Source of the DNA: a virus
Taxonomy: Duplodnaviria; Heunggongvirae; Uroviricota; Caudoviricetes
Length of the DNA: 25,289 nt
Virus record (IMG/VR): IMGVR_UViG_2531839265_000001
Span: 1-25,289 of that record
Direction: 5' to 3' (one strand)
The translations under genes were made by a program, and so were the position numbers. How positions within the stretch are numbered: the stretch's first letter is position 1; every line of letters starts with the position of its first letter. Shown piece after piece: positions 1-24,940 of this stretch. Below the pieces are notes generated by a model. It did no database searches and was not told where the DNA came from. It saw only the letters and a program-made list of their open reading frames with translations.

Positions 1-1197
1 CCCGGCAGTCAGGTAAACCACCCGCAGGGGAACCTGCGCACCATAGTGGCAGACTTTTTCCAGCAACAACTCAAAGCTCAGTTTTTCCGCCACAGCCTCT
101 TCATAGGGTTCCCCGAGCGTGGTGTTAATAAACGTCTTGACGCCGTTCGGATCCTTCAGCGCATCCAGCCAGTCATAAACAATCTGTACCCAGGTGGTGA
201 ACGGACTGTACGCCGTCCAGATGTGGAAAGTGACGGAGCGCGGTGGCGGCATCTCCTCATCACCGGCGCTGTAAAATGCCAGGCCGTCGCGCGTCCACAT
301 CCCGGTATTGTCACAAATCCAGCGTCCGTCGGTCTGGTCGAGTTCCGACTGTCGGATCACACAGCCATTATGTTCACACAGGTAATACACCGTTTCCGGT
401 TTACCCTTCTCCCATTTCAGGCCTGACGGCGTCGCATCATCACCAAACTTCAGATACTGGGCCTCCCCGCAATGAGGGCAAGGGACATAAAACCGCATGA
501 AATGCGCAGATTCATTCGCGGCTTTCTCAATCTGACAGGAACCTTTGATTTTTGGCGTTGAGCCGCGTATGGATTTAGGCCATACCGAACCTTCGATACG
601 TTTATCACCAAGCAGCGTCGGCGAACCTTCTTTTTCCACATCCGGTTCAAACGAGGAGAGTTCGTCATAGCAGACCACATCCACAGATTTTTCACGGTAG
701 TTTTTAGCAGCGGCACCGCCCAGGCACCAGAACCCCACACCGGAGGAAAAACGCTTCAGGGTGAGTGTATTATCCCGATGTTTTCTTCCGAACCATGGAG
801 CCAGCTCCAGCAATGCAGGGACATCCCTGATCGTTGGCTCAACATGAGATTTCATAAAATCTTCTGCCGCAGAATCTGTTGGCTGAAAAAGCAGACTGTT
901 ACGGGATTTATGCTCAATAAAATAAGCCTCCACCCCCAGGAGCATTTTGGTGTAACCAACGCGCGCCGATTTAATCAGATTAACGGTGCGGATCCGGTCA
1001 TTTCCCATGCTGTTCATAATGGCAACCTGAAACGGCAGGGTTTCCCATTGTCCGGGAGTGTATGAAGATTCTTTCGGCAGATAATAATGTTGATCAGCCC
1101 ACTGAACCGTCGTCAGTGGAACCGGAATATTGAGAGATAAAAGCCCTGTAGCTATCGCACCGGCTGCATTAGCTGCCTTCTGTGCGTCTGAAATCAT
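1..1197 (-). CDS. terminase large subunit (lambda gpA-like), N-terminal ~400 aa; ORF continues past the left edge of the window
   Basis: Minus-strand frame from ATG at 1197-1195 translates to [57 protein letters not shown]...[20 protein letters not shown]...[11 protein letters not shown], colinear with lambda A. No stop before position 1, which is why it is absent from the ORF track. Start overlaps the end of the Nu1-like gene as in lambda. Confidence 0.85.
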
Positions 1198-1716
1198 CAA
1201 TCCACCTGCCCACGTTTTCACCGGCTTTAGCTGCAACATTGGAGGCTTTCGCGATTTCAGTTTTCACCACATCAAGGTGTGACGGTGAAATATCCGGATA
1301 TTTACGCTGTAATGTCAGCGGCACACGTACAAGTATCCCCGAAATCTCCTGTGCCACACGTTGCAGAATGAAGGTAAACAATTCCGTTTCCAGCACCAGC
1401 CCTTCTTCACGGGCATTTTTCAGCTCCTGTGCGTCAGCCTGTGCTTTGGTTAGCCGGTAGCGTTCATAGTCAATGGTGCCGGGTTGTAAATCTGATTCTG
1501 CAGCCGCACGCAAATCTTCCAGTTCTTTGCGGAGCTTTTCATTTTCGATATCAGTTTCTCTCTGCGCGTACCACTGAATTGCCATCGCGGTATCAAACAC
1601 AGATTCAACACCCTTGCTACCTCCGGAGACGCAAGATAGCCCCTGAGACTGCCAGCGTTCAATCGTTCGCGGATCCACGTTGAAAATTTCGGCAAGTTTC
1701 TTTTGTTAACTTTCAC
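1169..1716 (-). CDS. terminase small subunit (Nu1-like), interrupted by a 1-nt frameshift in a T4/A4 run at 1701-1704
   Basis: Track ORF 1169..1678 carries the [47 protein letters not shown] signature of lambda Nu1. The expected N-terminus (GTG at 1716, MKVNKK...) is in the frame of track ORF 1450..1734; one extra A would give [27 protein letters not shown]. Confidence 0.8.
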
Positions 1717-1739
1717 AATACATTTCTCTATCAAATACA

Positions 1740-23523: not shown

Positions 23524-23584
23524 TGTTCAACCGTCGCCAGTTGTCGTTGGTATTCTGCAACTGGCGCGTTCCGGAGTGATAGCC

Positions 23585-24940
23585 ATGAGCGAACAGTACC
23601 TGATAACGCTCGATGAGTGGAAGCCAAAACGGTTCAGTCTCCCAATAACAAACACTACCCTGGTGAAATACGGAAAACTAGGATACATCGTTCCAAGACC
23701 ACAAAAAATTCGTGGGCGTTGGCTGATAGATCGCCGAGCAGTATTTGTTGGACCTGGTGAAACAGGAATTGCGCCGGAAATTCATACTGGCGATGATGAT
23801 GCACTGAAGGAGATTTTAACTCATGTCACCGAGGCCACGAAAAACAGCACTGACGTAGCCGGACTTTACGAAAAATTTGATCGCAGAACTGGCAGAGTTT
23901 ACTACCAGTATAAAAACCCTGTGACTGGAAAATTTCACGGGCTCGGAACAGACAAAGGTAAGGCAGAAAAAATCGCTTCCACAGCCAATCAGCGAATAGC
24001 TGCAGCAGAGGCTGAATATTTCATGCGCAAAATTGATGAAAGTCCGTCAGCAACAAAGCGTCGGGGTATCAGATTAAAGGCATGGGTTGATCGATATCTG
24101 AAAATACAGGACACGCGACTGAAAAATGGAGATATTGCAGCTACAACTCACAAAGAAAAAGCCAGAATGGCTGCATACCTGGTTTCCCGTCTGGGAAACC
24201 ACCCATTGAAAGAACTGGAAGTAAGAGACTTTGCATTAATACTGGATGAGTGGCTGGATAAAGACATGGTCAGCACAGCGAGAGTAAATCGTGGATTATG
24301 GGTTGATATTTATAAAGAAGCACAGCATGCAGGGGAAGTTCCTCCTGGATGGAATCCTCCGGAGGCTACCCGTAAACCGATCCCTAAAGTAACTAGAGCC
24401 AGGCTCACCCTGGAAGACTGGCAAAAAATTTACAACGCAACGCCTGAAAAACACTTTATCCGTAACGCAATGCTTCTTGCGATTGTTACTGGTCAGCGCC
24501 GTGATGACATTTGCCACATGCGTTTTTCAGATGTGTGGAACGAACACTTGCATATCACCCAGGGAAAAACCGGAATGCGTCTGGCGTTACCGCTTACACT
24601 ACGCTGTGATGCCATTGGGATAACGTTAAAAGAAGTTATTGATGGGTGCCGAGACAGAATATTAAGTCCATATCTAATCCATAGTCGGCACCAGAAACAA
24701 CCAAAGCCGATGAGTAAAGACAACCTGAGCGACTACTTTGCCAAAGCACGGGATCTGGCTGGGATAACTCCACCAGCAGGAAAAACTCCGCCAACATTTC
24801 ATGAACAACGCTCCCTGTCAGAACGACTGTACCGCGCGCAGGGTATTGATACAAAAACATTACTGGGACATAAAGTCCAGGCAACCACCGATCGTTATAA
24901 CGATACTCGTGGTCAGGAATGGGTTAAATTGGTTGTTTGA
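23585..24940 (+). CDS. excisionase-like segment fused in frame to a lambda-family tyrosine integrase; the fusion is probably caused by a missing base in the A5 run at 23840-23844
   Basis: N-terminal about 85 aa (MSEQYLITLDEWKPKRFSLPITNTTLVKYGKLGYIVPRPQKIRGRWLIDRRAVFVG) are Xis-like. The rest aligns to lambda Int (YEKFDRRTGRVYYQYKNPVTGKFHGLG ... HEQRSLSERLY ... LGHK...DRY.DTRG.EW). An out-of-frame ATG at 23823 reads MSPRPRKTALT-stop; with one extra A it becomes MSPRPRKNSTDVAGLYEKFDRR..., a typical Arg-rich Int N-terminus overlapping the xis end. Confidence 0.75.
   Translation: MSEQYLITLDEWKPKRFSLPITNTTLVKYGKLGYIVPRPQKIRGRWLIDRRAVFVGPGETGIAPEIHTGDDDALKEILTHVTEATKNSTDVAGLYEKFDRRTGRVYYQYKNPVTGKFHGLGTDKGKAEKIASTANQRIAAAEAEYFMRKIDESPSATKRRGIRLKAWVDRYLKIQDTRLKNGDIAATTHKEKARMAAYLVSRLGNHPLKELEVRDFALILDEWLDKDMVSTARVNRGLWVDIYKEAQHAGEVPPGWNPPEATRKPIPKVTRARLTLEDWQKIYNATPEKHFIRNAMLLAIVTGQRRDDICHMRFSDVWNEHLHITQGKTGMRLALPLTLRCDAIGITLKEVIDGCRDRILSPYLIHSRHQKQPKPMSKDNLSDYFAKARDLAGITPPAGKTPPTFHEQRSLSERLYRAQGIDTKTLLGHKVQATTDRYNDTRGQEWVKLVV

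Follow-up and report, generated by a model that had tools for sequence, protein, structure and literature searches.

The stretch of DNA considered here, a window of 25,289 nucleotides filed as IMG/VR virus record IMGVR_UViG_2531839265_000001, is integrated next to potC and is recognised as a lambdoid prophage by its open reading frame (ORF) layout and by megablast against complete Escherichia coli genomes. Its first gene (1-1197, minus strand) encodes the terminase large subunit and is truncated at the window start; there follow Nu1, lysis genes, the antiterminator Q, RusA, a DUF968 gene, a DnaT-like/P replication module, YdaT, a Cro-like/DicA-like switch, DicB, a large exonuclease, and xis/int, which end at 24940. 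Exact-protein look-ups led to scaffold JH594556.1 in assembly GCA_000243195.1, whose proteins are named Escherichia coli 4_1_47FAA and bear HMPREF0986 locus tags; window positions 1-16831 and 11052-25289 agree with this scaffold byte for byte. The window corresponds to bases 1-25289 of this scaffold; a scaffold gap of 186 N (25290-25475) follows directly, and the window end is this assembly gap, not a biological boundary. Beyond the gap lie potC, potD, cobB, a nagK-like gene, and lolCDE. The subject of this report is a set of fifteen A/T homopolymer runs of this prophage, the lengths of which are private to the one assembly and in nine cases alter the reading frame of a phage gene.

Each site was compared with two to nine other, independently assembled copies of the prophage (99.7-99.9% nucleotide identity), taken from NCBI isolate assemblies, Logan assemblies of Sequence Read Archive (SRA) runs, and ENA metagenome contigs. 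In an exact-protein look-up, the 823-residue exonuclease and the 266-residue TfpB-like protein are each found encoded, with identical sequence, on 16-18 contigs from independent projects. The flanking chromosomal DNA of the comparators (potCD, cobB, lolCDE) differs by 2.5-4% from that of the source, and none of them is the same strain. Frame jumps were scored by aligning annotated proteins of E. coli relatives to the window with tblastn. As alternative references, the complete genomes of E. coli in RefSeq and a phage collection were set aside: they yield only mosaic relatives at 84-95% identity, which display the frame jumps but cannot separate an artefact from a real change.

All comparators disagree with the window at each of the fifteen private indels, and all fifteen lie in A/T runs with a true length of 5-8 bases, the true length being that of the comparators. 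Thirteen are losses of one base, one is a gain of one base, and one is a gain of two bases. Private substitutions amount to approximately four (positions 424, 3923, 18604, and 19432). A/T runs with an observed length of at least 4, in which all the indels fall, make up ~7% of the window as counted from run tallies, and the concentration of private indels in these runs exceeds chance. The frequency of deviating A/T runs depends steeply on their true length, with 0/763 for lengths 3-4, 4/110 (3.6%) for length 5, 8/41 (19.5%) for length 6, 1/10 (10%) for length 7, and 2/3 (67%) for length 8. This corresponds to about one error per 1.7 kb and to ~9% of the A/T runs of at least 5 bases. Among G/C runs of 5-6 bases none deviates (0/17), a sample too small to claim a difference from A/T runs.

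These counts bear on the possibility that the prophage is cryptic and decaying, with real slippage frameshifts having turned Nu1, DicA, Int/Xis, the replication initiator, and other genes into true pseudogenes. Homopolymers are indeed natural hotspots of slippage. However, real decay is expected to produce mostly substitutions, together with nonsense mutations, insertion sequence (IS) elements, and deletions, whereas fifteen indels private to one assembly are found here against approximately four substitutions, and these indels are not shared by the related copies of the prophage. The strong bias towards the loss of one base and the steep dependence on run length also speak against decay.

Six of the fifteen sites are intergenic. 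Upstream of Nu1, the run at 1816-1820 reads A5 for a true A6 (2/2 comparators; A6 also in contigs L002 and L003), and two further runs read A7 for A8 at 5229-5235 and T5 for T6 at 5273-5277 (2/2 each). Nine of nine comparators disagree with the T4 at 7690-7693 (true T5), with the A5 at 7702-7706 (true A6, the gap being placed by the aligner at 7702 or 7707), and with the T5 at 20367-20371, located between called genes (true T6).

The other nine miscalls lie within genes. In Nu1 (terminase small subunit, 1169-1716, minus strand), a T4 is present at 1701-1704 in place of the T5 seen in 2/2 near-identical assemblies and 3/3 E. coli relatives; it breaks the first four codons, so that 169 residues are called instead of 182 and the tblastn alignment covers residues 5-182 only. 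The holin gene (4203-4477, minus strand) reads A6 for a true A7 at 4409-4414, and its product falls from 91 to 78 residues. The gene of an AraC-family regulator (8265-9004, minus strand) has a T7 at 8495-8501 where nine of nine comparators have T8, which reduces 246 residues to 171, the tblastn alignment passing from frame -2 to frame -1 at 8501-8510. The DUF968 gene (10258-11306, minus strand) has a T5 at 10646-10650 for the T6 of 8/8 comparators, and yields products of 240 and 96 residues instead of one of 349. A mosaic junction was considered at this last site, where identity to distant relatives falls at 10650, and was rejected, since near-identical assemblies show a plain T5 versus T6.

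The DnaT-like replication initiator (17095-18136, minus strand, 346 residues) is the only case of a one-base overcall, with T6 at 17836-17841 for a true T5 (8/8). The gene is split, tblastn passes from frame -2 to frame -3 at 17816-17841, and only a 79-residue fragment is called in the source annotation. A DicA/CI-like helix-turn-helix repressor of 135 residues, encoded on the plus strand up to 19363, has A5 for A6 at 18965-18969 (8/8), which places its ATG at 18957 out of frame, and no gene is called for it in the source. A 52-residue ORF (19694-19851, plus strand) contains the two-base gain, A8 at 19793-19800 for a true A6 (9/9); its C-terminus is altered, and 68 residues are called. The arms AGCCAGCT and ACTGGCT, inverted relative to each other, flank the A-rich loop in which this sole +2 miscall lies (window 19781-19812); the structure may be a small hairpin close to where the ORF ends. 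At the overlap of xis and int (plus strand), A5 at 23840-23844 for a true A6 (9/9) fuses Xis (89 residues) and Int (372 residues) into a 451-residue ORF (23585-24940); both are in frame 2 in the window, and in different frames in the relatives according to tblastn. Finally, a DUF2335 gene (minus strand, from 25018 to beyond the window end) reads T4 for T5 at 25245-25248 (9/9) and is not called in the source. It is located between int and potC, and the 186-N gap falls inside it.

When all fifteen runs are reset, the nine genes become single-frame and full-length, with 100% identity to proteins from independent assemblies: Nu1 with 182 residues, the holin with 91, the AraC-family regulator with 246, the DUF968 protein with 349, the DnaT-like initiator with 346, the DicA-like repressor with 135, Xis with 89, Int with 372, the 52-residue ORF, and the DUF2335 protein as far as the window reaches. 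Conversely, several broken products of the window as deposited are singletons. Among 15 billion proteins, the Xis-Int fusion occurs on a single contig, that of the source; the truncated AraC-family regulator (171 residues), DUF968 protein (240 residues), and holin (78 residues) are found on one contig each, and the intact forms on tens to 1000 contigs. The 169-residue Nu1 is found only in the source and in the strain's own 454 run, described below.

An initial annotation, made from the sequence alone, had reported that at least six genes are interrupted by one-base errors in A or T runs: Nu1, the AraC-like regulator, a small gene, the replication initiator, dicA, and xis/int. A tblastn frame jump is present at each of these six sites, and the direction of the required change was read correctly, namely one base to be added at five sites and one to be removed at 17836. 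Five of the run positions were exact (T4 at 1701-1704, T6 at 15336-15341, T6 at 17836-17841, A5 at 18965-18969, and A5 at 23840-23844); the sixth, a T7 placed at 8485-8491, was off by 10, as these positions read TCTTTTA and the T7 is at 8495-8501. The number of broken genes was an undercount, as nine are broken by artefacts and two by real lesions. The holin, DUF968, and DUF2335 genes and the 52-residue ORF were missing from the list, and tblastn reveals jumps beyond the six at ~4409 (holin), ~10650 (DUF968), and ~2355 (a hypothetical gene).

Homopolymer miscalling, which the initial annotation had put forward as one of two alternatives, the other being real decay by slippage, is strongly supported for five of the six sites (Nu1, the AraC-family regulator, the initiator, DicA, and Xis/Int), where the lengths are private and every independent assembly has the length that restores the frame, and for ten further sites. 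It does not hold for the run at 15336-15341, which is shared by all near-identical prophages. The mis-annotation that had been anticipated for these genes is indeed seen in the source, where Xis-Int figures as a 451-residue "hypothetical protein" (HMPREF0986_01576), next to the 169-residue Nu1, the uncalled DicA, and the 79-residue fragment of the initiator.

The small gene at 15183-15391 (minus strand) deserves separate treatment. On the gene strand its run is an A6, reading GTAAAAAATTC, and the corresponding part of a 70-residue homologue in E. coli STEC711 reads GTAAGAAAATTC (AAGAAAA); tblastn passes from frame -2 to frame -1 at 15311-15341. No indel is observed at 15336-15341 relative to any near-identical prophage covering the site, and the 37-residue product of the shifted gene is called in several near-identical assemblies. 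Since the run length is common to all near-identical independent prophages, the comparison identifies this change as a genuine frameshift inherited in the lineage, not an assembly error. A hypothetical gene at 2300-2591 (minus strand) is likewise truly decayed, with an in-frame TGA (2492-2490) and a 2-bp deletion outside any homopolymer (2354/2355). Both lesions are shared with near-identical prophages (L017 and L018), in which a 33-residue product is called. These two lineage-shared cases represent ordinary small-scale decay of accessory phage genes; they favour the decay reading to the extent that some accessory decay does occur in this prophage.

Cryptic lambdoid prophages such as Rac, Qin/Kim, and DLP12 of E. 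coli K-12 resemble the present prophage in being of the DicA/DicB/YdaT type and in having some accessory genes truly inactivated. Their lesions, however, pass to every descendant, and large deletions, IS insertions, and nonsense mutations are among them, whereas the fifteen indels described here are unique to one record and the terminase-to-integrase gene set in the window is otherwise intact.

Host DNA on the same scaffold is affected as well. The 9.5 kb past the gap (scaffold 25476-34940) contain private one-base losses in A/T runs at 26088, 28021, 30163, 33547, and 34580, the last of which rests on one comparator and the other four on all comparators. All five host indels are in A/T runs, despite substitution differences of 2.5-4% among the source and the comparators. 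The indel at 30163, in an A7 run, splits cobB into 241 and 45 residues; that at 33547 (T6 versus T7 in 8/8 comparators) breaks lolC (scaffold 33141-34339, or L027 19557-20755) into 265 and 134 residues. The miscall rate per run is 5/38 in host DNA versus 15/164 in the prophage (Fisher p = 0.54); an excess of indels in the prophage was thus not seen against the 9.5 kb of host DNA examined. LolC is essential in E. coli. This equal rate per run, which extends to an essential gene, argues further against prophage decay.

A genome-wide distribution of indels confined to mononucleotide runs would also fit a second explanation, in which strain 4_1_47FAA is deficient in mismatch repair and the indels of both prophage and host are real, such indels being the established spectrum of mismatch-repair-deficient strains. 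A mutator of this kind would nevertheless be expected to accumulate many transitions, against the approximately four private substitutions and fifteen indels of the prophage, and a frameshift in the essential lolC should be lethal. The comparison of two assemblies of the strain's data, given next, also speaks against it, and a mutator strain is judged very unlikely.

The platform can be traced through a 1479-base Logan contig, L029, from run SRR035597, which also encodes the truncated 169-residue Nu1. No mismatch separates it from window 307-1758, so that it carries the private 424 substitution as well as the T4 at 1701; these two shared features indicate that it derives from the same strain or from the same prophage copy. 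Over 1453 aligned positions, the sole difference is an A5 in the contig versus an A4 in the window at 1751-1754, where independent assemblies support A4. The two assemblies of the same strain's data therefore disagree at a further homopolymer, which points to unstable length calls at the level of the reads, at odds with real mutations in a mutator. L029 starts with untrimmed adaptor sequence, CCCCCTGTGTGCCTTGGCAGTCTCAG (L029 1-26), of which the last 25 bases correspond to the 3' terminus of the 454 Lib-L "B" adaptor CCTATCCCCTGTGTGCCTTGGCAGTCTCAG (identity of the adaptor from PMC4482049), leaving the remnant CCCCTGTGTGCCTTGGCAGTCTCAG; the homopolymer at which the two assemblies differ comes after it. 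This remnant marks the reads of SRR035597 as Roche/454 reads, and the deposited assembly was presumably built from that run. 454 was commonly the platform for Human Microbiome Project (HMP) reference genomes of those years. A literature search by scaffold accession or strain name found nothing on the sequencing method of this genome. Further SRR035597 contigs were sought through strain-private variants and none was obtained: YdaT L19 occurs only in the source, and endolysin L93 in unrelated prophages. Only the Nu1 site can therefore be compared between the two assemblies of the strain's data.

Errors of just this kind are typical of the platform that produced the reads, which is the last point against decay of the prophage, a reading that appears very improbable. 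The fifteen wrong run lengths are instead very probably 454 homopolymer miscalls in the draft genome of E. coli 4_1_47FAA. The genome would have been assembled from Roche/454 pyrosequencing reads, leaving fifteen A/T runs wrong in the consensus. In pyrosequencing, light intensity serves to measure run length, and the measure becomes unreliable from 5 bases upward. The nine miscalls located in genes would then appear as frameshifts in Nu1, the holin, the AraC-like regulator, the DUF968 gene, the DnaT-like initiator, the DicA-like repressor, the 52-residue ORF, and the DUF2335 gene, and as the Xis/Int fusion. Wrong homopolymer lengths in 454 consensus sequences are documented to split the ORFs of draft genomes into two pieces of the same function (PMC3542290). 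The present case resembles these draft genomes in that indels occur only in mononucleotide runs, are commoner with increasing length, and split ORFs in two, and also in the 454 adaptor present in the strain's own run; it differs by its high error rate, by consisting almost entirely of undercalls, and by its restriction to A/T runs (G/C 0/17, a small sample). Uncorrected nanopore or PacBio assemblies also display one-base losses in A/T runs and artificial pseudogenes, but the assembly considered here is an N-gapped scaffold of the 454 era, with a run carrying a 454 adaptor, and not a long-read product.

Functional roles for the runs have also been weighed. They could be programmed frameshift sites or phase-variable switches that regulate phage genes, and slippery A/T tracts of 4-8 bases are present inside genes. 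Each of these genes, however, is a single uninterrupted frame in every other prophage copy, as also in E. coli relatives that are more distant, six of the fifteen sites are intergenic, and the run lengths are invariant among 8-9 independent isolates. Phase-variable tracts (contingency loci) have in common with the present sites that the length of a mononucleotide run in a gene sets its reading frame. In true contingency loci the tract differs in length between isolates and even within one, and the lengths follow phylogeny (PMC4746626), whereas the 8-9 isolates compared here are uniform and only one assembly departs from them. The likelihood of functional recoding is practically negligible.

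Several points weigh against the explanation by 454 miscalls. The true run lengths were taken from the prophage copies of other strains, and not from reads or flowgrams of 4_1_47FAA; as no comparator is the same strain and the flanks are 2.5-4% apart, real mutations private to the strain are conceivable at individual sites. The second assembler, run on SRR035597, repeats the T4 of Nu1, which means that the undercall dominates those reads and that this assembly is not an independent check. For well-covered 454 data, one error in every ~1.7 kb is a high rate, and would imply low coverage or weak consensus calling. Fragments identical to those of the split lolC are also found elsewhere, the 134-residue one on at least 1000 contigs and the 265-residue one on 797 contigs. 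These ~800 to at least 1000 other contigs are read tentatively as the same recurrent artefact: the T7 run of lolC looks like a miscalling hotspot across public assemblies, a tolerated polymorphism being less likely. Contig names with a split lolC include Shigella sonnei 3226-85 and E. coli DEC12A, OK1180, and LT-68. In favour of miscalling, an indirect hint of ambiguous run length is provided by the disagreement of the two assemblies at 1751-1754.

Should the run lengths be real after all, a slippage-prone, mismatch-repair-defective gut isolate would carry packaging, lysis, replication, repressor, and integrase/excisionase genes that are simultaneously inactivated, and would survive with a split lolC, either with LolC functional in two pieces or with the gene rescued by slippage at the T run during transcription or translation. 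Such a combination is extremely unlikely. With 454 miscalling as the preferred explanation, the strain's true DNA presumably has the corrected run lengths, as judged from the comparator sequences, and the biological prophage is almost certainly intact at the miscalled positions.

Other features of the prophage were noted along the way. Cargo-like genes are present between the antiterminator Q and the lysis genes (window 5000-9100). They comprise the AraC-family regulator described above, a TfpB-like protein (PF27470, 6031-6831), and two unannotated ORFs of 194 and 118 residues. In addition, a sister assembly has a PerC-like ORF (PF06069) annotated opposite the 198-residue ORF at 2704-3300. Together, the AraC-family, TfpB-like, unannotated, and PerC-like ORFs are possible regulatory or virulence morons. 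Two intact toxin-type modules are found in the early region (window 12143-13220): a Doc/Fic-family toxin (12146-12628) with a small ORF upstream, and a hok/gef-family gene (13041-13193). The prophage is present at 99.7-99.9% identity in at least eight E. coli isolates with divergent flanks, always at the same site beside potC. Near-identical prophages within divergent flanks at one site suggest that a single phage spread recently and horizontally among divergent hosts.

The artefact is of a known kind and of low scientific interest, and constitutes a concrete data-quality warning for users of this assembly or of proteins derived from it. Because of the rate of about one homopolymer error per 2 kb in the record, the annotation of GCA_000243195.1 holds artificial truncations and fusions, such as the Xis-Int fusion HMPREF0986_01576 and the split lolC. 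The miscalled products enter protein databases as singleton variants, and users may take them for pseudogenes, gene fusions, or evidence of prophage domestication. Counts of pseudogenes or of prophage decay would be inflated if GCA_000243195.1 or similar drafts of the 454 era were included. For the biology of the prophage itself the miscalls are unimportant, as it is most likely intact, with an ordinary Nu1, holin, AraC-like regulator, DUF968 protein, initiator, repressor, Xis, and Int.

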